Part shown: one piece after another, positions 1-20,239 of the stretch
How positions within the stretch are numbered: position 1 is the stretch's first letter
Layout of the letters: each line of letters starts with the position of its first letter
From: Candidatus Saccharimonadota bacterium
Lineage (GTDB): Bacteria; Patescibacteriota; Gracilibacteria; UBA4473
Reading direction: 5' to 3'
Assembly: GCA_965228485.1 (NCBI GenBank)
Contig: OZ245819.1
Coordinates: forward strand, 930,001 to 962,000
Length of the DNA: 32,000 bases
Notes under the pieces: model-generated
The model's input: the letters and a program-made list of their open reading frames with translations, nothing else
Databases searched by the model: none
Told to the model about the DNA's origin: nothing
Program-made: the position numbers and the translations under genes

Positions 1-467
1 ATTGGATCACTATTTTTTTTGTGTCCGTCATATTTAACTTCCCAAGGAAAATCAATCCAGGTATCGTAATTTAATATATCTCCAACATAGGTAAGTGTAT
101 GATCTGGCCAGCGTGCAAAGGTTGCGGCGGTATCTATGGTGTGGTAGAGTTTTTGGACGTATTTTATCGTTTCGCCCGAATCAAAAATATCATCTATGAG
201 CAAGCATTTTTCAGGATTGATGACATCGTTTGAAAATCCCTCAACCGTGACATGATGAATATTCCCCGCTTTTTGGTCTGTGTAACTTGAAAGATTGATG
301 GTTTCTACGGGAATATTTAGTTTTTTGGCAATAAAGTAAGCAGGAAATAGTCCTCCTCTAGTAATGGCAAGAATAAAGTCGTATTGCTTCCCAGTCGTCT
401 GGATTTGATTGATCAATTTATCATTTGTCTGATAAAAATCCGTCCACGTAATGAGCTTATTTGCCAT
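1..467 (-). CDS. gpt: xanthine-guanine-type phosphoribosyltransferase; the 3' end runs off the window edge
   Basis: Hand translation of the minus strand from the ATG at 467-465 stays open to position 1 (155 codons). It is absent from the ORF track because no stop lies in the window. Sequence: MANKLITWTDF..AITRGGLFPAYFIAKKLN..SSY..CLLIDDIFDSGETI..DTWIDFPWE. It shows the Gpt-like layout: RGGL loop, acidic IDD-x-x-D-S-G-x-T PRPP motif, and C-terminal DTWIxxPW. Confidence 0.7.
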   Translation of the reverse strand, partial: MANKLITWTDFYQTNDKLINQIQTTGKQYDFILAITRGGLFPAYFIAKKLNIPVETINLSSYTDQKAGNIHHVTVEGFSNDVINPEKCLLIDDIFDSGETIKYVQKLYHTIDTAATFARWPDHTLTYVGDILNYDTWIDFPWEVKYDGHKKNSDP

Positions 468-3484: not shown

Positions 3485-5458
3485 CTAAATTTCACCATTA
3501 AATAAATGTCCATATTTTGACTTAATGAACTCAAGTTTTTCTGGTGATTGATTGAAATTATCTAGGTCTTTTTTCATGAAAGCATGTTTCCATTTCAATC
3601 CTCTAAAAATTGTTTCCCAACTTTTTACTATAACTCGAACATTTCCATCATCAGATTCCCAGAGAAGACCAGGTTCTTTGTTTTTTTGGTTAGCTTTCTT
3701 TTTCACGGTAGCGTCTAATACATCCCCAATTAAAAGAAACTCCCATGTTGTAGTAGATTTATCAAATCGATCATCTTCACTAACTTTCACTGCATAGTTT
3801 TCAATTTGTCCAACTTCTTTATTTGTAATTGTAACAGAAGGTCTTTTTAGTTCTACTACAAGGTGATGGAATGAATCTTGTCTTGTTTGAGGAAATTGTT
3901 TTCCGATACATATATCTGGGCGTTGTTTAGAATTTTCTTCTTCATCAACTACATGAAGATCATCTCTTCCCAGTTCCTTGATGTGTGATTTTAAAACATC
4001 TTTAAATATTTGGTCACTTGTCATAAGACCATTTTCATATTGATCTCCGAAAATCCATAGCTCGTTTTCAATAATTGGGTGTAAGTGCTTTCTTTCTAAT
4101 ACTTTCTTTTTTGTATCATTTGATGAAATCAATGAGTGAATTTCTTCAGCCATTTTGATTCTTTCGGTGATTTTTTTTGATAGCTTTATGATATTTGAAA
4201 GAGAATTTCTTTTTAGTAGTTCAGAAAAGTCATCAATTTCACTTTTTTCGAGAGTAACGACTCCTTCTAATATGTGTATTAATTGATCAGAGCCATTTTC
4301 AACAGCATTTTTTATAAGGTTTAACACCATTGTTTTCGTTTTTCCTTGACCAAATATTTCGGGAGACTTTTCAAGAGTTTTTGCTGCAACTATGTCGAAT
4401 ATTTGCCTCTCCGCCACTTCAAGCTTTGATTCAGGCGGATTTTGATAAGGATAGTCTTCACTCTTTTTGATTTCATCAATTTTTGATTTTGCTTTTTCTT
4501 GTTTCACAGTAAGTATGAAATCACTCATTTTCAGATCTATTGCAGATTCTATTTTTGAAAAAACTGGATTAGTTTTAAAAAGCAAAAAAGCATTGTCTTC
4601 TGAAAATTTATCAAAATAAACTGATTTTATTACGATAGAGTGACCAAAATCTTTAAGGTTTGTTCCCGTGACTCCATCGTCATATAAAGGCATTCCTTTT
4701 GAATTTGCAAATATCCGTTTTTTGATTCCCTTACTCTCCCAGTGATAAAAAATTACCTCAAGTGTTAAATCAATATTAAGGTCTTCATCAATAACAGGAA
4801 TCGATTGTTTTTGCTTTTTAATAATGGCTTTTTTTATATCGATTTCATCTCCATTTAGACTTATTTTTATATTCTCTGAGTTGTAGGTTTCTAGATATAA
4901 TCCTAAGTTGGAAATTAAATCATTTCTCAGTTCTTCGATTGAAAATTTTTTATCAAACCTTTCTTTAAAAAGATTTTCAATTTTTACTACTACCCCAGTG
5001 TGTTCAGTAGAATCAACAGGCTTATCTGAAAGTTTGAACTTTTGTAAAGACCCATTTGAGCTTCCTTGGATTTTGAATACCTTTTTTTTGTTGTCTTTTT
5101 CTTTATAAATACTTCCCCAAGAAACCTCTGTTCCCAAAGAAAAACTAAAGTAACGACCCTGTCCATTTTTCCCATGATAAAACCTGCCGTTCGGTGTTTT
5201 ATCGATAGAGGCTTTTGCCGAAGATCCTAAGAACCCAAAACTATCATTTATTTTATTGTAATCTATTCCATGTCCGTTGTCTGAAACTGTTATTAAAGAA
5301 AGTCCGTCTAGCGAGTTGTTCTCAAATACGATATCAACATTTGTTGCATCTGCATCAAGAGCGTTCCATACTAATTCTAAAATTGCTCTAGATACTGTTT
5401 GGCTAGCAAAATTATTCTCAAGATAATTATTTGCGACTTTTACTTCTAATTCCTTCAT
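3485..5458 (-). CDS. GHKL-superfamily (Bergerat-fold, MORC/HATPase_c_3-like) ATPase fused to a C-terminal PD-(D/E)xK nuclease-like domain (Shedu/DUF4263-like)
   Basis: N box ELVWNALDADATNV, G1 box VSDNGHGI, G2 box GKNGQGRYFSFSLG. The C-terminal region has ENELWIFGDQYE .. RPDICIG .. HHLVVELKRPS .. QIENYA, which fits a D...E-x-K restriction-endonuclease-fold signature. Confidence 0.8.
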   Translation of the reverse strand: MKELEVKVANNYLENNFASQTVSRAILELVWNALDADATNVDIVFENNSLDGLSLITVSDNGHGIDYNKINDSFGFLGSSAKASIDKTPNGRFYHGKNGQGRYFSFSLGTEVSWGSIYKEKDNKKKVFKIQGSSNGSLQKFKLSDKPVDSTEHTGVVVKIENLFKERFDKKFSIEELRNDLISNLGLYLETYNSENIKISLNGDEIDIKKAIIKKQKQSIPVIDEDLNIDLTLEVIFYHWESKGIKKRIFANSKGMPLYDDGVTGTNLKDFGHSIVIKSVYFDKFSEDNAFLLFKTNPVFSKIESAIDLKMSDFILTVKQEKAKSKIDEIKKSEDYPYQNPPESKLEVAERQIFDIVAAKTLEKSPEIFGQGKTKTMVLNLIKNAVENGSDQLIHILEGVVTLEKSEIDDFSELLKRNSLSNIIKLSKKITERIKMAEEIHSLISSNDTKKKVLERKHLHPIIENELWIFGDQYENGLMTSDQIFKDVLKSHIKELGRDDLHVVDEEENSKQRPDICIGKQFPQTRQDSFHHLVVELKRPSVTITNKEVGQIENYAVKVSEDDRFDKSTTTWEFLLIGDVLDATVKKKANQKNKEPGLLWESDDGNVRVIVKSWETIFRGLKWKHAFMKKDLDNFNQSPEKLEFIKSKYGHLFNGEI

Positions 5459-5551
5459 TGATTTTAAAATAATTTATTATTGATGTTTATCTTAATTGTA
5501 CATTTTTCACTTATTCCCTAAAGCGTTCTTCGTTTTTCGCTAGCCTTTCCC

Positions 5552-7555
5552 CTAGAAGTCTAAAAAATCTTTTGTCTCCGTTTTTGCTTGTTTTGGAATT
5601 ACTTCTTCTGCATCTGCTTTTTTTAATTGAGGATCTTCTGGTTCTTCATATCCCATTTCTTCTACAAAAAAATCAAAGAACTTTTCAAATTCATCAATAT
5701 TTAAAAAATCTGAAATTTGTCCTCCCTCTTCAATCATTTTTGAAATCGTTTCCAAAACCCCTTGCTCTTTATCGAAACGAGGTTTCTTCCCTGAGAGATA
5801 AAAATCTTCTAATTCTCCTGTAAGCGTAAAAATATTTTCTCCTTGAAGATCTTCCATATATTTCTCTGCTCGTTTCTTGTCTGCTCCTTCACTAATTTCT
5901 TCGATGTTTTTCCCAAAAGTGATTTGTGATTTAAGAGTGTTAAGAGCATCTATTTTCCCTTGAGATTCCCTCAGTTCGGTAAAGTATGAATTCAGTCCTT
6001 CTTTTATAAAATCGAAGTCAGGCAACACGAAATAAGGAATTTCAAGTTCTCTTAGAACTTCAACATATTTCCAAAAATCAGTTTTTCCACCAATATTCAA
6101 AACCGAAACATTGTTTTCATTCAACCAATTTTCTCCAAGCCTTTTTTGTTCTCCATATCCCTTTGCTACTTCCTCTAGTACATACTTTAAATCTTCGGTC
6201 AGAATTACTGCATCAGCAAAGAATATTTCAGCATTTTCTCTTCGAATTAAAATTTGCTTCCTTTTTGGCGGATCAAAGCTAATATTTTTTGCCTTCGTTC
6301 CTCCTTCATCAATCTTTTGTATTGCAATAACATTGAGTTTTTCTCCAACTGGAACAATAAACTCAGAAGAATGCGTAGTTGCTATTACCTGATTTTTTCC
6401 CCCATCTAAAAAGTGATTTAAACGATCCGAAATAACCCTTCTTCCATGTGGATGAAGGTAAAGTTCAGGTTCTTCAATGGCAAGCAAAGAACCGCTTGTA
6501 TGAGCAACCTCACGAATATAAAAATCAAACAAGCCGATTGTAACTGCACTTTGAATCCCTGCTCCCTTGTCTTTCAATTCACTATTAAATCCATCATCAA
6601 CATAAATTAAGGCATTTTTATAAACATCTTGTTTGGTATCAGGGTTGAACTGAAATGAAATTTTTGTATTTGGAAAAGCGATATTTATTTTCCCATCACA
6701 AACGCTTTCTTGAAGTTCTCCAAAAACACCTTCTGATGCTTTTTTAACTTCTCCAAAAGCTTTTTTTAATTCTGCATTCTCACTATCGATATAGTTTTTT
6801 AAAAGTTTTCCATACCAAGACCAACTACTTATTCTAAGCTGATCTTTGGTATCACGAAAAGCAGGAATGATAGCACTTTGCAGAAAACAGTGTCTTAAAT
6901 TTCCAACATTCAATCCCATCTCCCATTTTTCGCCATCATTTGAGTAAAAAAAGCCTAGTTTCTTCTTAAATTCTTGTCCTTCTTTTTTTACAAAAAAACA
7001 AAAGGCTACTCTTTGAATACTTGCAAATTCTTTATCAAAGGTTTGTCCCTTACAATATCCCTTTTCTCCAATCCATTTTGTACTGAAATTATCTACATTT
7101 TCCTCTAAAACCTGTTCTCCCTTTTCTGTAAAAAACGGATAAATACTACTCAAGTTTTTTTCTAAATCATCAAAATTTATATAATAGTTTGTCTGAACTC
7201 TTGAATGATAAGGAATGTCTTTGTCCTCTTTGACGATCTTTTTGAATGCTTGTTGAGGGGCATCTGCAAAATCTAGTGTTTCTATCTCTCCTGTTTTAAG
7301 GTCGATGCCTCTTTTTAATTCGCACCAAATAAAAAGCTCTTCATCCGTATTTCCATTATAAAAATCATTTTCAGTAATATTTTCTGATTTATTCCAAGTG
7401 GGAGAGGTTTCCCCCAGCACGAGATCTATAGCTTTTACAATATTGCTTTTACCTGAGTTATTTCTCCCAACAATAACATTTTTTCCTTCTTCAAAAGATA
7501 CATCTAGTTTTTTTATTGAACGATAATTTTTTATAAAAACTCGGGAAAGGTGCAT
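5552..7555 (-). CDS. OLD-family nuclease: N-terminal ABC/AAA_15-type ATPase plus C-terminal Toprim domain
   Basis: N-terminus MHLSRVFIKNYRSIKKLDVSF..VIVGRNNSGKSNIVKAI (Walker A). LLAIEEPELYLHPH is Walker B followed by the LHP motif typical of OLD/GajA-like ATPases. ATTHSSEF is also present. Toprim glutamate segment: AVILTEDLKYVLEE. Acidic DxD-like segment: YFVLPDFDF. Confidence 0.85.
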   Translation of the reverse strand: MHLSRVFIKNYRSIKKLDVSFEEGKNVIVGRNNSGKSNIVKAIDLVLGETSPTWNKSENITENDFYNGNTDEELFIWCELKRGIDLKTGEIETLDFADAPQQAFKKIVKEDKDIPYHSRVQTNYYINFDDLEKNLSSIYPFFTEKGEQVLEENVDNFSTKWIGEKGYCKGQTFDKEFASIQRVAFCFFVKKEGQEFKKKLGFFYSNDGEKWEMGLNVGNLRHCFLQSAIIPAFRDTKDQLRISSWSWYGKLLKNYIDSENAELKKAFGEVKKASEGVFGELQESVCDGKINIAFPNTKISFQFNPDTKQDVYKNALIYVDDGFNSELKDKGAGIQSAVTIGLFDFYIREVAHTSGSLLAIEEPELYLHPHGRRVISDRLNHFLDGGKNQVIATTHSSEFIVPVGEKLNVIAIQKIDEGGTKAKNISFDPPKRKQILIRRENAEIFFADAVILTEDLKYVLEEVAKGYGEQKRLGENWLNENNVSVLNIGGKTDFWKYVEVLRELEIPYFVLPDFDFIKEGLNSYFTELRESQGKIDALNTLKSQITFGKNIEEISEGADKKRAEKYMEDLQGENIFTLTGELEDFYLSGKKPRFDKEQGVLETISKMIEEGGQISDFLNIDEFEKFFDFFVEEMGYEEPEDPQLKKADAEEVIPKQAKTETKDFLDF

Positions 7556-7842: not shown

Positions 7843-9003
7843 TTATCGTTTCACCAAACAAACTTCTCGAGCGACAAAGGTGTCTTCTCGTTCGTAGAAG
7901 AAGGTTGTTTCATCGTTGAATATTTTTTCAGGTTTGAAGCCGTATGATTTGATAGTATCAAAAAGATCTTGGCTAATGGATGTTTTTTGCCCGCGGTGAT
8001 TCCAGGCAGGGAGGCAAAAAGAGCAAGTTTGGATATTTGTGTTATCGATGTTTTTGAAAAACTTTTTCCAGAGGGCTAAAACCTCTCGAGCATTCTTTTG
8101 AATATCGGCTTTTTCTGGTTGGCGTTCAAAGTTTTTTCCTAGGTAGCCTTCCGTAACAATTACGGGATCAGTTTTTAGCATTTCTGGATGATCAAATTGA
8201 GTGGCGTCTTTTGGGAAAAATTCACCGTTTTTTTCTTCGTATCGGAACTTTTCGGCCATTTGAGAAAAGTTTTTTTGAGAACTTTTTACAAACATTTCAT
8301 TCCAGTCAGAACCAATGGTTTTGTGTCCGAGAATAGCGGCCTCAATATTAATCGTTCCACTTCCGCAAAAGGGATCAATAATCGTTTGATCGATATTAGG
8401 GTTGGCGAGATTGATAAGGATTTGAGCCAGTTTTGGAGGCAGCATTCCCATTTTTGGGTCTCGAAAGACTTTGTTTCGATCTCGAAGCGTATAGTTTCTG
8501 AGATTTTGGTTGGCTATAGTTTCAGCAAGGAGAAAAGAGTTTTCATTTTTCCATATGAGAAATTCATGACCTTTTTGAAGTATTCGTCGGTCAAAAATTT
8601 GTCCTGAATTTAGGTTTTTTCCCTGATAGTTTTCGATTCTTATTTTTTCAAAATGGTCTTTAGTTTTTCCGATAAGTTCTGATTGAAAATCTTTTCCTGC
8701 GCCGAAACTTGAAAACCCAACTTTGAATTTTTGTTCTTCTTCAATTCGATCCCAAACCATATTCATGAGCTGAGATTTTGAGGCAAATTCGCCTAGTATT
8801 TTCCCAAACCGGATTGTCCCCCCAAGTCGATCAAGGAATAATTGGTGTTCCTCTCTTGGTATATTTCGGGGATTTTCAAAACGAAGATTTTCACCAATAA
8901 AGAGTGATTTTCTGGGGTCAACAAACACTTCTTCACAAAAATTACGTAGCTCTGCTCGAGAGAGTTCAAAATTACGACCGAGGACGAATAGATATTGGTT
9001 CAC
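7843..9003 (-). CDS. Trm11/UPF0020-like SAM-dependent RNA (probably tRNA guanine-N2) methyltransferase
   Basis: MLPPKLAQILINLA..IIDPFCGSGTINIEAAILG..DAT..VIVTEGYLG parallels the Trm11/RlmL-type layout (substrate loop, motif I DPFCGSGT). The expected (D/N)PPY motif IV is replaced by TEGY. Confidence 0.75.
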   Translation of the reverse strand: MNQYLFVLGRNFELSRAELRNFCEEVFVDPRKSLFIGENLRFENPRNIPREEHQLFLDRLGGTIRFGKILGEFASKSQLMNMVWDRIEEEQKFKVGFSSFGAGKDFQSELIGKTKDHFEKIRIENYQGKNLNSGQIFDRRILQKGHEFLIWKNENSFLLAETIANQNLRNYTLRDRNKVFRDPKMGMLPPKLAQILINLANPNIDQTIIDPFCGSGTINIEAAILGHKTIGSDWNEMFVKSSQKNFSQMAEKFRYEEKNGEFFPKDATQFDHPEMLKTDPVIVTEGYLGKNFERQPEKADIQKNAREVLALWKKFFKNIDNTNIQTCSFCLPAWNHRGQKTSISQDLFDTIKSYGFKPEKIFNDETTFFYEREDTFVAREVCLVKR

Positions 9004-13149: not shown

Positions 13150-13422
13150 ATGAATTTCCTATCAGCCTACGATTTTGACAAGGCACTCCGCAAAAGTGAA
13201 AAGGAAAACTGCACTTTAACCGGAGCGTATGACTTCGAGAGTGCAGTATTCGATTATATTTTTGTTGAAATAAACTTCTCTAACGTCCTCGTGAAAAACG
13301 GCTCCTTTTCGGGAAGTGAGTTTCGAAATTGTCGATTCCACGACGTAAAACTCGAAAGAGTTGATCTAAGTATGGCGCAGTTATTTGACTGCGAAGTAAA
13401 AAGTCTAGAAATATCAATCTGA
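13150..13422 (+). CDS. short pentapeptide-repeat-like protein (possibly truncated)
   Basis: NFSNVLVKNGSFSGSEFRNCRFHDVKLERVDLSMAQLFDCEV shows five-residue periodicity of hydrophobic/F/L positions. It ends in TGATAA, and protein-like open frames follow it. Confidence 0.45.
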   Translation: MNFLSAYDFDKALRKSEKENCTLTGAYDFESAVFDYIFVEINFSNVLVKNGSFSGSEFRNCRFHDVKLERVDLSMAQLFDCEVKSLEISI

Positions 13423-14662: not shown

Positions 14663-14695
14663 AAAAAAACACCTCGTAAAGAGAGGTGTTTTTCA
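14663..14695 (-). terminator. intrinsic terminator of valS (bidirectional geometry)
   Basis: CACCTC (14670-14675), loop GTAAAGA, GAGGTG (14683-14688), flanked by A7 on the left and T5 on the right. It lies 18 nt downstream of the valS stop. Confidence 0.75.
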
Positions 14696-14712: not shown

Positions 14713-17427
14713 TTAGAGACTGCTTAATTCGGCTTCTAATTTTTCTTTTTCGGCTATCTTGTTTTCTAAATCGTCTTTAGTTTGTACCACTAGATGTTCT
14801 GGTGCTTTTTTGGTATAGGCTTTGTTGCTTAGTCTTCCTTTTAGAGCGGTAATACTTTTGTTCAAAGTTTCAATCTCTTTGGTAAGACGAATTTTTTCCG
14901 CTCCTTCATCAAATGGAATCTCAATGTAAATTTCGATTCCATTAGTAATGGCTGTGGCAGATCTTTCTGGTTTTTGAGCCTTTGAATCAATGGTTAATGC
15001 TGATAGGTTGGCGAGTGTTTTAATGATTTCTTTTGTTGTCTTAATCTGTGTGTTATCGGTTTTTAGGGTTCCTGCAATTTTATCTTTTGGATTTAGTCCT
15101 TTTTCGGCTCTAATTTTTCGAATCTCATTAACGATTGATTGTATGGTTGCAAAAGTTTCTTCAGCCTCACGGTCTTTAAAATCTGGTTTTGGGAATTCTT
15201 CAGACATGATTGATGTATCTTTCCCTTCCAGTTCTTGCCAGAGTTTTTCCGTAACAAATGGGCAGAGAGGATGAGTAAGTTTAAGAATTTCTTTGATTGC
15301 AAAGGTGAGTACGCTTGGGGTTGGTTCAACTTTTGAGGCTTCAAGATACCAGTCACAGAATTCTCCCCAGACAAAGTGATAGATTTTGTCTCCAGCCGCA
15401 GAAATGTCATATTTTTCTAAGTGGTCAGAAACTTCCTTCGATACGTGTGAGAGCCTCGAAAGAATCCACCTATCGGCAAGAGATTCAGGCATAACAGTGT
15501 CCGAAATTTCCTTGCCTTCTGTCTGCATTTGTACGAATCGTGTAGCGTTCCAGAGCTTATTCACGAAGTTTCGATATCCTTTGATTTTGTTTCTCCCAAT
15601 AGGAATTTTTTGTCCTGGAGTCGATCCGATAACCAAAGCCAAACGTACAGGATCAGCTCCGTATTCTGAAATCATCTCAAGTGGATCAATCCCATTACCT
15701 TTAGATTTAGACATTTTTTTGCCGTGCTCATCGGTGACCATCCCATGAAGATACACGGTGTGGAATGGGTATTTTCCAGTAGCGTAACGTCCGAACATAA
15801 TCATTCGAAGTACCCAAAAGGTTAAAATATCCCAACCGGTTTCGAGTACGTCAGTTGGGTAAAATTTTTGGAAATCAGGAGTATTTTCATTCGGCCAGCC
15901 CAAAGTTGAAAACGGCCATAAAGCCGAACTAAACCAGGTATCTAAAGTATCTTCATCCTGGCGCAGATTGAGTGTTTCTTGTTCTGGTGTTAGGAATCCT
16001 GTGGCAACGATATTGTCGTTTTCATCATACCAAACTGGGATTCGGTGTCCCCACCAGATTTGACGTGAAATACACCAGTCTTGGAGATTGTCTGTCCATT
16101 GAAAATAACCTTTTTCAAAACGTTTGGGAATAATATTTACATCCTCATTTTTAACCGCATCAGCGGTTAGCTTGCAAAGCGTTGTTGTTTCTCCGGTGTG
16201 TTTATCGGTAAATTCTTTATTAACCATTACAAACCACTGTGGAGAAATCATGGGTTCTACCACGCATCCAGATCTATAACAGAGTGGTGTTCTGTGGGTG
16301 TAGTCTTTCTCAACTCCCACCAGCAACCCCATGTCTTCCATGCATTTTCCAGATTTTTTCCGGGCTTCTTCTACACTTAGGCCTTCGCAAGGTCCGGCAA
16401 CGGAGGTCATTTTCCCTTCAAAATCAATCTTTTGGATAAAGGTTTCATCCAGACCTTTTCGTTTGGCCAGATCATAATCGTCGGCGGAATGTGAAGATGA
16501 AATGGTCATAGCGCCGGCGCCTTTTTCTGGATCAATTACCTCGTCGGCTATTACATAAAAAGATCTTTTGGCCGCGTAAGTATCGTACTCAAATTTAGTC
16601 CCCTCTAGGTCTTTACCAGTAAAAGTGTCTACCACTTCATACTCCGCCTCCGGATCAAGGAAGTTGAGGGTCTTAAAAAACTTTTCTTTATCGTTCCAGA
16701 GGTTTTCAATCACCATCAAGGTTTCATCCCCAAATTTGATTCGATGATATTTTGATTCTGGATGAACCACTAGGGGACTATCGGCACACTTGGTTTCTGG
16801 ACGCACAGTTCCGATCACAAATTCACCACATCGGATGTAGTAGAAAGGCTCTTTCACTTCTTCCCACTCAAGCTCATCATCTGATAACACTGATTGGGCC
16901 CCTACAGACCAGTTGATGAGTCGGTGTCCTTGCTCAATAAGCCCATCATCATACAACTTTTTAAAGATGTAATTTACCGCATAATTTCGTTTTTCATCAA
17001 AGGTATAGGCCTCCCGCGACCAGTTCAGCCACGATCCCATTTTTTTCATTTGATTGATGATGTTGTCGTGTTTTTCATTTGCAAAAATTCGACAGTCATC
17101 CAGAAATGCTTCACGGTTTGGCCACTCTTCCCTAGATTTTTTTCCGTGATGTTTAATCACCACATTTTCGGTGGCGATAGCGGCATGATCTGTTCCAGGA
17201 AGCCAAAGGACTTCATGCCCTTTCATGGCTTTATATCGAGTCAAAATATCTTCAATGGCAAGCATTGCGGCGTGACCTAAATGGAGATTTCCTGTTACAT
17301 TGGGAGGAGGAAGAGGGATGGTGAAAGGAGGTTTTTCAGAAGAGCTATCAGCTCTCATGTCTCCAGAATCTTCCCATTGTTGATAAATTTTGTCTTCGGA
17401 ATCGTTATGATTATAAGCTTTGTCCAT
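14713..17427 (-). CDS. valS: valine--tRNA ligase
   Basis: 904 aa. Class I HIGH motif (PPPNVTGNLHLGHA), KMSKS motif (KMSKSKGN), editing-domain insert, and the C-terminal coiled coil typical of ValRS. Confidence 0.97.
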   Translation of the reverse strand: MDKAYNHNDSEDKIYQQWEDSGDMRADSSSEKPPFTIPLPPPNVTGNLHLGHAAMLAIEDILTRYKAMKGHEVLWLPGTDHAAIATENVVIKHHGKKSREEWPNREAFLDDCRIFANEKHDNIINQMKKMGSWLNWSREAYTFDEKRNYAVNYIFKKLYDDGLIEQGHRLINWSVGAQSVLSDDELEWEEVKEPFYYIRCGEFVIGTVRPETKCADSPLVVHPESKYHRIKFGDETLMVIENLWNDKEKFFKTLNFLDPEAEYEVVDTFTGKDLEGTKFEYDTYAAKRSFYVIADEVIDPEKGAGAMTISSSHSADDYDLAKRKGLDETFIQKIDFEGKMTSVAGPCEGLSVEEARKKSGKCMEDMGLLVGVEKDYTHRTPLCYRSGCVVEPMISPQWFVMVNKEFTDKHTGETTTLCKLTADAVKNEDVNIIPKRFEKGYFQWTDNLQDWCISRQIWWGHRIPVWYDENDNIVATGFLTPEQETLNLRQDEDTLDTWFSSALWPFSTLGWPNENTPDFQKFYPTDVLETGWDILTFWVLRMIMFGRYATGKYPFHTVYLHGMVTDEHGKKMSKSKGNGIDPLEMISEYGADPVRLALVIGSTPGQKIPIGRNKIKGYRNFVNKLWNATRFVQMQTEGKEISDTVMPESLADRWILSRLSHVSKEVSDHLEKYDISAAGDKIYHFVWGEFCDWYLEASKVEPTPSVLTFAIKEILKLTHPLCPFVTEKLWQELEGKDTSIMSEEFPKPDFKDREAEETFATIQSIVNEIRKIRAEKGLNPKDKIAGTLKTDNTQIKTTKEIIKTLANLSALTIDSKAQKPERSATAITNGIEIYIEIPFDEGAEKIRLTKEIETLNKSITALKGRLSNKAYTKKAPEHLVVQTKDDLENKIAEKEKLEAELSSL

Positions 17428-17455
17428 ATTGTTTAGTGTTTGCGATCGAAATTAT

Positions 17456-17503
17456 AAAAAAACTCGCCCTTTAGGCGAGAGTAAAATGATCGAAGTCTCG
17501 CCT
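17456..17503 (-). promoter_or_regulatory. transcription attenuator: mutually exclusive antiterminator and terminator hairpins in the valS leader
   Basis: Minus strand: A-GGCGAG (17503-17497), 17 nt, CTCGCC-T (17479-17473), then TAAAG loop, GGCGAG (17468-17463), then T7 (17462-17456). The central CTCGCC can pair with either GGCGAG copy. Confidence 0.65.
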
Positions 17504-17508
17504 TCAAT

Positions 17509-17547
17509 TTATAGGTTTACGACAACGACCACGAATGAGTTTTTCAT
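17509..17547 (-). CDS. valS leader peptide MKNSFVVVVVNL (12 codons plus stop)
   Basis: Hand translation: ATG AAA AAC TCA TTC GTG GTC GTT GTC GTA AAC CTA TAA. There are five consecutive Val codons. The stop lies 6 nt upstream of the first GGCGAG segment. The ORF is below the size cutoff of the ORF track. Confidence 0.6.
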   Translation of the reverse strand: MKNSFVVVVVNL

Positions 17548-17555
17548 CGTTGACG

Positions 17556-17584
17556 AATTTAGATGAGGACTGTTTTTTTGTCAA
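17556..17584 (-). promoter_or_regulatory. promoter of the valS leader transcript
   Basis: Minus strand: TTGACA (17584-17579), a 17-nt spacer, TAAATT (17561-17556), then 8 nt to the leader ATG (17547). Confidence 0.55.
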
Positions 17585-17618
17585 TTTTCTTAGAGGTTAA
17601 AAATTCATTAACTCTATA

Positions 17619-17646
17619 TTGATTTTTTTAAAATACATTTTAAAAT
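17619..17646 (+). promoter_or_regulatory. promoter of the 861-aa gene (leaderless geometry)
   Basis: TTGATT (17619-17624), a 16-nt spacer, TAAAAT (17641-17646), then 7 nt to the ATG at 17654. Confidence 0.45.
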
Positions 17647-17653
17647 ATATACA

Positions 17654-20239
17654 ATGAGAGAGATAGATGATAAACTTTCATATGTGCTTTTGGAGGCGAA
17701 TGAGTTGTATCCTTCTGAAGAGTTACAAAGGTGTCGAGAAATTCTTGGTATTGAGGATTTTCCGGAAGCCTTAAAAGAGGCTAAAAGACTGATAGAAGAT
17801 ATAGCTGCTGAGCCTTATCATTTAGGGATTGCTCCTGATGTTTATAGGGAAAAAATTGTTGGTATTGTGAAACAATATGCTCCGAGAGCGATTGGCTTTG
17901 CTTTGGCGGGGATGCCAACTCCCGAGCTTCGGGAAGGAGTAAAAAGAGAGAGTATTGTTTTAGAGACTCTTATCGCTTTTTCTCGTCAGTATTTTAAGGT
18001 TAATGAGAATCGTCTCATTCAAGAGGTGGCTCATCAAGGGGGCATCTCTTTAAGAAAGCTTTCGCAGGATACCGAGTTTATTTCAAATATGGTTAGAGAA
18101 GTGGTTGATAATCCTATTGGGGCTCATATAGACAAAGCTCATACAAATGCCGTTTTGGGAGATTATCCTGAACAACCACAAGAGGTAGACTTAACCGCTG
18201 GACAGGCTTCTGTAGATCCTCTGCATGAAGATGCTCATTTGGTTGATAGGGCTATGTATCATGGAATGGTAAATGTTTTGAATGAGATGAGTGAAGAAGA
18301 ATTATTAAGCCGTCCAGAGCTTATGAGCGCTTTTAGCGGCGCAGACATTGATCCAAAAGATTTTAAACGTTGGATTCGGACAAGGCCAAAAATTCGAAAT
18401 TTTTGGATTAACGCTCTTAATACTTTTATCTTTTTTCATCAGTTTTCTTGGTTCAAATTCAATCTCTCTTTTACGGGTAGTCCAGTATTAAAACCTGTAT
18501 GGATAGCCTTTTTAAAACATCATTATGAGCGATTATCAGGGAATGAGGAAAGCACAAAAACTTTTGGGGAGCTTTTAGCCAGCTTTTGGGAAGCTTGTCC
18601 GCAGGAGTTGAGTAGCCTGATTGATGAAGCTTTTCGAAATGAGAAAGCTAAAAAAGGGCCTTCCGATAGATCGCCTAAACCAGTGAAAAAAGTTGAAAAA
18701 GCTGACAAACCTAAGAAAAAAAGAAAACCTCGTCGTAATACTAGGATCACTCCAGTAGAGCAAGAAGCTGGCATTGTTGATAAAGTAGAAGACGTTGTAG
18801 CGCTTCCAAAACCAGAGGTTGTTGGAGGCGAAGAATCATTATCAAAACGTTTTGCCCTTGGACAATACGGAGTAGAACTTACTAATGTGCCGGAAGAGGC
18901 GGCTTTTCTTTTGATCAATTCTGGAAGAGGGGCTAATTATCAAAGAATACCTTTAGTTAAAGGACAGTCGGTTTATCGCTTTAGGAGTCCAAAGTATAAA
19001 TCAGGGAAATTTTATGAGGTAAAAATTGGATATGCTCGGGCAGATGAAAAACTCGTTCCAGAAAACAGTTTAGTTGTAAAATTTCAGCATCCTGTATCAG
19101 AAGTAGTTCCTCCTGCGACTGAAAAGGATTTAGAAACTTTTGAAGTTCCAGCGGAGTTTGAACCTGGAGTACTGTCTGGTAATTCAGAGACAGAGAGCAG
19201 TCACGAAGAGGGGGGTGTAGTTCAGCCAGCAGAAGAATTGGTTCCAGAGAATACAGAGCCAATAGCTTATTTGAACAATCTAAAATTGCTTTCTCGACGT
19301 TATAATCTTGATGATTTTCAACTTTCTAATAATCGAGGTTTTGTTTGGGATCAATGTATTGGGAGGCCAAGTATGAGTTTATCTGGTGAAAATGAAGGGG
19401 TAAGTTTTGAAATTTCAAAAGTTCCTATGATTGGGATGGTTGGGGTAACTTTGGAATGCGAACATTTCTCTGTAGATGTTATATTTTCAAAAACTAAAGC
19501 TTCGGTGGTATCTCCTAAAATTATGGTGAGACATACAGATAAGAACTTTACAGATAAAAACATTGAAGACTTTGCCCATGGTTGGCTCTATGATTTTTCT
19601 TTTCAATATTCAGATGGATTAAGAGAAACATTAGATCAAAAAGTTGAGGAAGATAAAAAACGAGAAGAGGAAGTCTTTGTACGACAGAAAGCGAAGTATT
19701 TGAATTCAGAAAAAGGGAAAGATGTTCTTCGTAAAAAACAGGAGGTTTTGCGTTCTGGGGGAATTTTAAGGGTGCTAAGAACCGATGATTCCGGCGGGTA
19801 TGTTAAAGAACTTTTACCTTCGTCAGAAATTCATCCGGAGGATGAAATAATTCTTATGGGAGCAACATTATCAGTGGGAAGAGAAAATTTCCCAAGTTTG
19901 TATGAAGCTTTAGAAAGTCCTTATTTTTGTCACTGTATTTACCAACGAATTCGTGCCACAGTTAAACAGGCTCATGGTCTCAATGGCGAAGCCAGAACTC
20001 CATTTGAAGATAAGTACAAGGACGCCGTTTTTTCTATACTCTCTGCTTTTGAGATCGATGAAGAAGATATAGCTTTGGATGAGAGTGATTTTTGGTTTCA
20101 AGTGGAAGATTTACTTACCAAAGGGAATACTCATATAATTGAGAGTTTTATTGATTTACTAAAAGACCAGGGACTACCCGCTGGATTTCAGCATCCTTTT
20201 ACTTTGGATCGGGAAACAATCGAAAAGTTTAAAAGTTAA
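17654..20239 (+). CDS. large hypothetical protein (861 aa), no recognisable domain
   Basis: Long uninterrupted ORF with non-repetitive, protein-like composition. It contains a strongly basic linker (KAKKGPSDRSPKPVKKVEKADKPKKKRKPRRNTR). I could find no catalytic motif. Confidence 0.8.
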   Translation: MREIDDKLSYVLLEANELYPSEELQRCREILGIEDFPEALKEAKRLIEDIAAEPYHLGIAPDVYREKIVGIVKQYAPRAIGFALAGMPTPELREGVKRESIVLETLIAFSRQYFKVNENRLIQEVAHQGGISLRKLSQDTEFISNMVREVVDNPIGAHIDKAHTNAVLGDYPEQPQEVDLTAGQASVDPLHEDAHLVDRAMYHGMVNVLNEMSEEELLSRPELMSAFSGADIDPKDFKRWIRTRPKIRNFWINALNTFIFFHQFSWFKFNLSFTGSPVLKPVWIAFLKHHYERLSGNEESTKTFGELLASFWEACPQELSSLIDEAFRNEKAKKGPSDRSPKPVKKVEKADKPKKKRKPRRNTRITPVEQEAGIVDKVEDVVALPKPEVVGGEESLSKRFALGQYGVELTNVPEEAAFLLINSGRGANYQRIPLVKGQSVYRFRSPKYKSGKFYEVKIGYARADEKLVPENSLVVKFQHPVSEVVPPATEKDLETFEVPAEFEPGVLSGNSETESSHEEGGVVQPAEELVPENTEPIAYLNNLKLLSRRYNLDDFQLSNNRGFVWDQCIGRPSMSLSGENEGVSFEISKVPMIGMVGVTLECEHFSVDVIFSKTKASVVSPKIMVRHTDKNFTDKNIEDFAHGWLYDFSFQYSDGLRETLDQKVEEDKKREEEVFVRQKAKYLNSEKGKDVLRKKQEVLRSGGILRVLRTDDSGGYVKELLPSSEIHPEDEIILMGATLSVGRENFPSLYEALESPYFCHCIYQRIRATVKQAHGLNGEARTPFEDKYKDAVFSILSAFEIDEEDIALDESDFWFQVEDLLTKGNTHIIESFIDLLKDQGLPAGFQHPFTLDRETIEKFKS

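Follow-up and report, generated by a model that had tools for sequence, protein, structure and literature searches.

The valS locus and its upstream region

The window (the whole stretch of DNA that was analysed, 32,000 nt in length) contains on its minus strand an ORF that matches PF00133 (tRNA-synt_1), PF08264 (Anticodon_1) and PF10458 (Val_tRNA-synt_C) and is thus assigned as valS, the gene for valyl-tRNA synthetase (ValRS). It is preceded by a promoter, a short leader ORF rich in Val codons and a set of RNA segments with alternative pairing potential (Table 1). The leader ORF reads ATG AAA AAC TCA TTC GTG GTC GTT GTC GTA AAC CTA TAA, and its stop codon is followed by 6 nt, GGCGAG, 17 nt, CTCGCC(T), a short loop, GGCGAG and T7. 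All elements listed in the initial annotation of this DNA were found on the minus strand exactly as described there, and its statements that the neighbouring gene is divergent (ORF 17654-20239 on the plus strand) and that the target gene is valS (three Pfam matches, Val_tRNA-synt_C among them) hold as well.

Table 1. Features of the valS region of the window and their positions
Feature	Position	Strand	Description and basis
-35 hexamer TTGACA	17579-17584	-	direct sequence reading and consensus scan
-10 hexamer TAAATT	17556-17561	-	17-nt spacer to -35; leader ATG follows after 8 nt
Leader ORF MKNSFVVVVVNL + TAA	17509-17547	-	12 codons and stop; without Shine-Dalgarno (SD) motif
Five consecutive Val codons GTG GTC GTT GTC GTA	17518-17532	-	proposed regulatory codons
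P1 hairpin AUUGAAG-GCGAGA-CUUCGAU	17489-17508	-	begins directly after the stop codon; segment 2 core in loop; minimum free energy (MFE) folds
Segment 2 AGGCGAGA	17496-17503	-	antiterminator 5' arm, 5 nt past the stop codon; folding and covariation
Segment 3 UCUCGCCU	17473-17480	-	antiterminator 3' arm and terminator 5' arm
Terminator hairpin CUCGCCU-AAA-GGGCGAG	17463-17479	-	segments 3 and 4; folding and consensus scan
Terminator U7 tract	17456-17462	-	direct sequence reading and consensus scan
valS, 904 aa	14713-17427	-	ATG at 17427, 28 nt past the U-tract; putatively regulated gene
Terminator-like hairpin and T-run	14664-14694	-	just 3' of the valS stop codon; consensus scan
Upstream neighbour of the valS leader	17654-20239	+	divergent; no Pfam match

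The leader promoter is the joint-best match (10/12) in the 7-kb region covered by the consensus scan, which also listed the hairpin at 17479-17463 with its T-run as a terminator-like site. Apparently valS is monocistronic, because a further terminator-like hairpin with a T-run lies directly past its stop codon. The run of Val codons is the only (GTN) run of at least four to be found on the two strands of the 32 kb; from shuffled sequences, runs of at least five are expected 0.04 times.

The position of the -10 box implies that the transcript would be leaderless or nearly so. The initial annotation had treated this as a special feature. Elsewhere in the window, SD-like motifs are nearly absent 5' of genes, and for several first genes (starts at 13150, 17654, 31168 and others) a -10-like TAnnnT ends 7-8 nt before the ATG; the promoter of the divergent neighbour, for example, reads TTGATT-16-TAAAAT-7-ATG. 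Sigma-70 promoters usually start transcription about 7 nt past the -10 box. Leaderless mRNAs therefore seem to be usual in this organism, and a leaderless leader ORF seems to be the form expected here rather than an exception.

The G+C content of the window is 36.7%. Among species-representative genomes, the closest ValRS sequences come from metagenome-assembled genomes labelled Candidatus Altimarinota, Gracilibacteria and Peribacteria; in this set, identity to the window ValRS is 86% for contig L001, 71% for L004, 68% for L005, 66% for L006 and 63% for L002. These relatives place the host among Gracilibacteria-related members of the Candidate Phyla Radiation (CPR), and not among the Gram-positive bacteria that the initial annotation mentions. 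An exact-sequence look-up of the window ValRS returned no record. An alternative genetic code was considered as the cause of truncated valS genes in short contigs and was rejected. Of the six first stops, half are TAG or TAA; the other three are TGA, and translation through the TGA continues to the contig end in only one of these. Elsewhere in the window (3485-7555, minus strand), an OLD-family-like AAA_15/TOPRIM ATPase (5552-7555) adjoins a HATPase_c_3 protein (3485-5458), and a DNA-methylase-like gene (7843-9003) is found near this pair; together they may constitute a defence island.

Conservation of the leader among valS relatives

Upstream regions of valS were collected from related genomes, from a metagenome scan and from the contigs of eight close N-terminal protein matches. 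The same design was found 5' of valS in five independent relatives, all of which belong to one Gracilibacteria-related clade: L001 (TTGACA-17-TACATT-10-ATG; leader MRQPFVVVVNV*), L004, which equals L100 (TTGACA-17-TACTTT-7-ATG; leader MKLSVVVVVNPT), L005 (TTGACA-16-TACTTT-7-ATG; leader MKHLMVVVELYF), L101 (TTGACT-16-TAAATT-8-ATG; leader MKFLSFVNVVKVV) and L104 (TTGACA-16-TACACT-8-ATG; leader MKNNSFVVGEVVVVVR). Counting the window, TTGAC(A/T) occupies the matching -35 position in 6/6 sequences, the distance from the -10 box to the leader ATG is 7-10 nt in all six, and every leader peptide contains between three and seven Val residues. The leader stop codon is TAA throughout, with segment 2 starting 4-6 nt later, and a hairpin with a U-tract is present in all six, followed by valS 15-60 nt further on. 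The gene upstream is divergent in the window, L001, L004 and L005 and co-directional in L101 and L104. Because the upstream neighbours thus differ between loci, the element belongs to valS and travels with it.

A generic scan for promoter, short ORF and terminator (TTGnnn-16..18-TAnnnT, 5-11 nt, ATG, short ORF, terminator), covering the window and 33 CPR loci, returned the six valS leaders and one spurious match. This seventh match (L004:316) was rejected, since the opposite strand carries a large ORF that spans it. Conservation of the kind that the initial annotation's reading calls for was found in relatives: leader ORF, Val codons, terminator and exclusive antiterminator are kept, and both helices carry compensatory changes.

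The ValRS clade in question has about 12 members with 69-96% identity over the first 190 aa, and the attenuator occurs on three separate branches of it. Over the same 190 residues, ValRS proteins are 71-81% identical between attenuator-bearing lineages, and the close pairs are window/L001 (92%) and L004/L005 (96%). The element is absent or unrecognisable 5' of valS in L002, L102, L103, L106 and L107, whose ValRS proteins are 69-78% identical to those of attenuator-bearing contigs over the first 190 aa. The distribution within the ValRS clade is patchy. Two of these contigs, whose ValRS proteins are 75% (L106) and 72% (L107) identical to that of the window over the first 190 aa, have no Val ORF and retain hairpin-like sequences just 5' of valS: TTCGCT..AGTGAG-T6 in L106 (150-268) and CCTCGACGACGG-T8 in L107 (1400-1500), the latter resembling segments 3 and 4 of L104 minus the loop. 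Such remnants may represent decayed attenuators.

More distant valS loci lack the element. The metagenome scan with the ValRS N-terminus returned only distant valS genes (at most 42% identity, two short fragments excepted) and no Val leader among them, while a set of 5.8 billion proteins yielded only eight close N-terminal relatives; protein matches at 50-54% identity were ValRS of the Parcubacteria type. In 91 other valS upstream regions we found one short ORF with at least three consecutive Val codons, which was unconvincing. This candidate, MLNQSNVVVEIA* at L084:1327-1365 (the same in L085), has 12 codons and lies about 170 nt 5' of another CPR valS (42% identity); it was rejected, as its fold has a z-score of -1.2 and no convincing terminator/antiterminator was seen.

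Two side observations concern the ValRS proteins and the sequence just upstream of their genes. An insert with one or two histidine-phosphatase-like domains (RHG motif) is present in the ValRS of L004 (3001-6303), L005 (3001-6330), L006 (3001-6822) and L104 (2861-3254); PF00300 was called on the L104 fragment and on the distant matches P0106 and P0114, and the ValRS proteins of the window and L001 are without the insert. Additionally, the last T of the U7 tract and the following ATAAT form a perfect TATAAT at 17456-17451 (minus strand) of the window, which is also seen in L001 (2975-2980), and L004 and L005 carry TAAACT and TACAAT, respectively, each 9 nt 5' of the valS ATG. These TATAAT-like boxes may provide a second, attenuator-independent promoter giving basal valS transcription, or they may be a by-product of a T-run followed by A.

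Val codons in the leader peptides

Val accounts for 30 of the 70 non-initiator residues of the leaders, compared with 5.7% in the proteins of the window. Third codon positions vary between homologous leaders while Val is kept, indicating that the codons, rather than an RNA motif, are under selection. The commonest Val codon in the leaders is GTC (12/30, 40%), which is the rarest Val codon both in the genes of the window (8%) and in the six cognate valS genes (9%); for leaders versus cognate valS, the enrichment has a Fisher p of 4e-5 when the relatedness of the leaders is ignored. Use of rare codons is known from some classical leaders. Comparison of the homologues revealed no conserved sequence with which the Val-codon stretch could pair. 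In the MFE fold of the window, the Val run pairs with sequence past the terminator; this pairing was discarded, because the partner sequence is missing from the homologues.

Alternative folds of the leader RNA

The RNAs following the leader stop codon were folded one by one, both at full length and, for the pairing of segments 2 and 3 (2:3), after cutting just before segment 4. At full length the MFE structure is the terminator in five of the six sequences (-11.8 to -16.4 kcal/mol). The exception is L104, which has a bulged, weak terminator and adopts the antiterminator as MFE structure even at full length. When the RNA is cut before segment 4, the 2:3 antiterminator forms in all six (-10.2 to -12.5 kcal/mol), with a value of -11.9 kcal/mol for the window. 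When the part upstream of segment 3 was shuffled 1000 times per sequence, 0-4 shuffles equalled this fold; as to the antiterminator pairing of the window, none of 1000 shuffles of the intervening sequence equalled it.

To imitate a terminating ribosome, 10 nt directly past the stop codon were masked, a length close to what ribosomes are known from toeprints and footprints to cover there. Under the mask, the 2:3 helix was gone or reduced to -4.4 kcal/mol or weaker in 6/6 sequences, and the full RNA adopted the terminator in each of them (-8.1 to -11.8 kcal/mol; -10.5 kcal/mol in the window).

The terminator and antiterminator proposed in the initial annotation, which had named the folding of both as a check, are thus borne out, with 2:3 pairing in all six cut RNAs and the terminator as the full-length MFE in 5/6. 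It had missed a further hairpin, P1, which encloses segment 2. Among the relatives, L004 and L005 share P1, a hairpin analogous to it occurs in L101, and neither L001 nor L104 has one. The 5' arm of P1 does not lie over the Val codons: because P1 is located past the stop codon, it would stay closed when a ribosome stalls on the Val run, and the four-segment logic of trp is therefore not an exact map. In some relatives, P1 brings the RNA closer to a four-segment design. It could serve as a pause signal before segment 3, or as an anti-antiterminator that sequesters segment 2 after release of the ribosome.

Covariation of the two helices

When the six sequences were aligned by MAFFT without guidance, segment 3 was misplaced, and RNAalifold returned no base pairs. 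Since no structure was obtained in this way, we used per-sequence folding together with a hand-anchored alignment (A3). A3 contains no gaps; its three blocks, 11 nt each, were placed by the shared core CGAG/CUCG/CGAG and joined by constant linkers, and the bulged C of L104 was taken out. On A3, 85% of the cells are paired in the terminator (3:4), where five pairs changed on both sides and the observed value was reached by 8/500 shuffles. For the antiterminator (2:3), 83% of the cells are paired, four pairs changed on both sides and the corresponding figure for the covariation score is 4/500. Sliding the registers left only 31-50% pairing. The clearest events extend across all three segments: C->U in segment 3 (L001 and L101; one position over in L104) is accompanied by G->A in segments 2 and 4, and L101 has the same A-to-G change in both partner segments opposite a U. 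Because the alignment was anchored by hand, its linkers replaced and a bulged base removed, its statistics lean towards structure, and the covariation values from these six sequences should be taken as indicative only.

Proposed mechanism and alternative explanations

What has been computed is the set of elements with their conservation and spacing, the covarying pair of helices that exclude each other, and the response of the folds to masking. Several features of classical attenuators are seen here: an ORF with cognate codons, an intrinsic terminator, an antiterminator that shares its 5' arm, the stop-codon geometry and a cognate gene downstream. As to a 1:2-type hairpin, segment 2 is sequestered past the stop codon in the window, L004, L005 and L101, and L001 and L104 are without such a hairpin. 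We consider it likely, on the basis of these computations on six sequences, that the element is a ribosome-mediated leader-peptide transcription attenuator that matches valS transcription to the supply of charged tRNA-Val. The same reading, put forward in the initial annotation, is thereby supported by conservation, covariation and the masked folds.

A sigma-70-type promoter would start the RNA at, or 1-2 nt from, the AUG of the 12-codon ORF. With Val-tRNA plentiful, the ribosome would run to the UAA and cover AUUGAAGGCG, the next approximately 10 nt, which include most of segment 2; the 3:4 hairpin and U7 would then form and an RNA of about 90 nt would be released before valS. With Val-tRNA scarce, the ribosome would wait on codons 6-10, at least 9 nt before the stop, so that its front edge would reach the stop codon at most. 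Segment 2 would remain free and would pair with segment 3 before segment 4 exists, and with the 2:3 helix in place no terminator would form and RNA polymerase would read into valS. Here the transcription start, the translation of the leader, the stalling and the kinetic competition are steps that we infer.

Other explanations have to be weighed against an attenuator of this kind. Promoter, tiny ORF and terminator might be a short unit of their own, specifying a small RNA or a micro-peptide, with valS expressed constitutively from a downstream promoter and insulated by the terminator. We regard this as improbable. It draws on the perfect TATAAT at the end of the U-tract in the window and L001, on the TAAACT and TACAAT boxes 9 nt before the valS ATG in L004 and L005, and on the seemingly common leaderless starts 7-8 nt past -10 boxes in this genome; these -10-like boxes, however, come without a -35 element, and a T-run followed by A readily yields TAnnnT. 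A separate short unit would also leave unexplained why the antiterminator covaries, why the gap between stop codon and segment 2 is fixed at 4-6 nt, why Val is retained amid other change and why the element constantly adjoins valS. A weak second promoter and attenuation could coexist.

The default behaviour of the RNA bears on a different possibility. As the antiterminator would form first by default, any delay of the ribosome or failed leaderless initiation would give read-through, and the attenuator might be coupled to translation in general, sensing translation capacity or ribosome availability, with Val codons that are incidental (owing, for example, to sequence or structure constraints). 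We give this explanation very little credence, for the six homologues retain Val while its synonymous codons vary, the gene concerned is valS, the rare Val codon GTC is enriched and the Val-codon stretch is without a conserved pairing partner. A purely accidental arrangement, in which a promoter-like site, a short ORF and a hairpin happen to lie together in intergenic DNA rich in AT, has hardly any probability left. Promoter-like and terminator-like sites in the region are indeed not clearly above expectation (13 observed versus 15.0 in shuffled sequence and 9 versus 5.6, respectively), but the covarying arrangement is kept in six lineages, with ValRS 71-81% identical between lineages, the shuffle tests gave 0-4/1000 and no other (GTN)5 run occurs in the window. 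Given the comparative data, the chance explanation appears effectively refuted. With its unique Val run and a design that is repeated in five other contigs, the leader architecture is not due to chance.

Leader codons and operon content

One further relative, L006, touches on the scope of leader-peptide attenuation in this group. Downstream of its valS lie a 97-aa ORF and, immediately after it, the gene for an IleRS-like class-I synthetase (ATG at 7120; PF00133), whose best database matches are named isoleucine-tRNA ligase; this arrangement looks like a valS-orf-ileS operon (L006:6828-9078). A diverged leader at L006:2847-3000 keeps the CGAGA/UCUCGCC/GGGCGA+U8 segments, and its ORF, which is without ATG and without a good -10 box, reads (TTG) V-A-I-V-Y-I-S-TAA with alternating Val and Ile codons. 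As a single case, it is suggestive of a dual Val/Ile leader. A search for ileS with the L006 IleRS revealed no Ile-rich leader in three upstream regions, none of which comes from the L006 clade. The Gracilibacteria-related CPR clade probably imports amino acids. That minimal leaderless leader-peptide attenuation is ancestral and general for the aminoacyl-tRNA synthetase genes of this clade, with leader codons tracking operon content, seems unlikely, if conceivable; if true, no cis-regulatory system that senses amino acids would have been described for CPR before it.

Relation to known systems

Gene regulation in CPR/Patescibacteria is, to our knowledge, almost entirely unexplored; members of this group are uncultured, have reduced genomes and probably obtain amino acids from partners. 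If our interpretation of the valS leader is true, these bacteria monitor tRNA-Val charging directly and adjust synthetase levels, and valS joins the few synthetase genes known or predicted to be controlled by a leader peptide (pheST and, as predictions, leuS and trpS). The mechanism itself is classical, and the understanding of attenuation is unchanged by the valS case. The element described here is a well-supported new case of it, on a gene (valS) and in a lineage (CPR) for which we found no earlier report, and it has a compact, leaderless form. Within the library covered, full-text literature searches turned up neither a valS leader-peptide attenuator nor any attenuator in Patescibacteria. 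At about 90 nt, leaderless and with essentially three segments, the predicted attenuator should be easy to test or engineer.

Rfam searches at gathering thresholds yielded no match in the window and no leader or T-box family in the 20 related loci searched; in a permissive scan, the best leader match was Trp_leader, whose 13.7 bits (E=6) fall short of the threshold of 41. The usual solution for valS in Firmicutes and some other phyla is the T-box, a structured RNA of about 200 nt that binds uncharged tRNA directly. It shares with the window leader the gene, the signal (tRNA-Val charging) and the output (terminator versus antiterminator); the window leader, however, has no T-box match (RF00230), even at E<=10 in 17300-17750. 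In a distant valS locus (36% identity), L088:1231-1426 gave a full-length match to RF00230 with 50.3 bits, below the gathering threshold of 93 (E=2.8e-10). With this T-box-like leader, albeit a sub-threshold match, both T-box and leader peptide are seen to occur on valS.

Val/Ile/Leu-rich leaders are known from the enterobacterial ilvGMEDA and ilvBN operons, which serve branched-chain amino-acid biosynthesis and are under multivalent control. As in those systems, runs of Val codons in the window leader would sense charged tRNA-Val and control an intrinsic terminator. The window leader, in contrast, is essentially Val-only and precedes a synthetase gene. Closest in logic is E. coli pheST, with which it shares a leader peptide for the cognate amino acid and alternative terminator and antiterminator structures on an aminoacyl-tRNA synthetase gene. 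It differs in amino acid and gene (Val and valS), in lineage (CPR), in being apparently leaderless and without an SD motif, and in its shorter RNA; in addition, the P1 hairpin of the window lies after the stop codon and does not overlap the regulatory codons, and the element has no sequence relationship to the pheST leader and no Rfam match.

The initial annotation knew pheST as the only aminoacyl-tRNA synthetase example, which turns out to be too narrow. Seliverstov et al. (2005, PMC1262725) cite pheST as a classical gamma-proteobacterial example and predict classical attenuators for leuS and trpS in Streptomyces; valS does not occur in that paper (0 occurrences). The Streptomyces cases have in common with the window leader that they are predicted leader-peptide attenuators on aminoacyl-tRNA synthetase genes outside proteobacteria, and they differ from it in the synthetase and in the phylum. 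For the Cys leader peptides of Mycobacterium, the same authors found no obvious terminators (PMC1262725), and a preprint (bioRxiv 10.1101/834739) reports leaderless polycysteine short ORFs in mycobacteria as Cys-responsive attenuators. As reported there, the mycobacterial ORFs resemble the window leader in being leaderless and short, in having one abundant amino acid, in forming the first cistron and in attenuating the genes downstream. They belong to Actinobacteria and to Cys-related operons. The window leader possesses an evident canonical pair of terminator and antiterminator.
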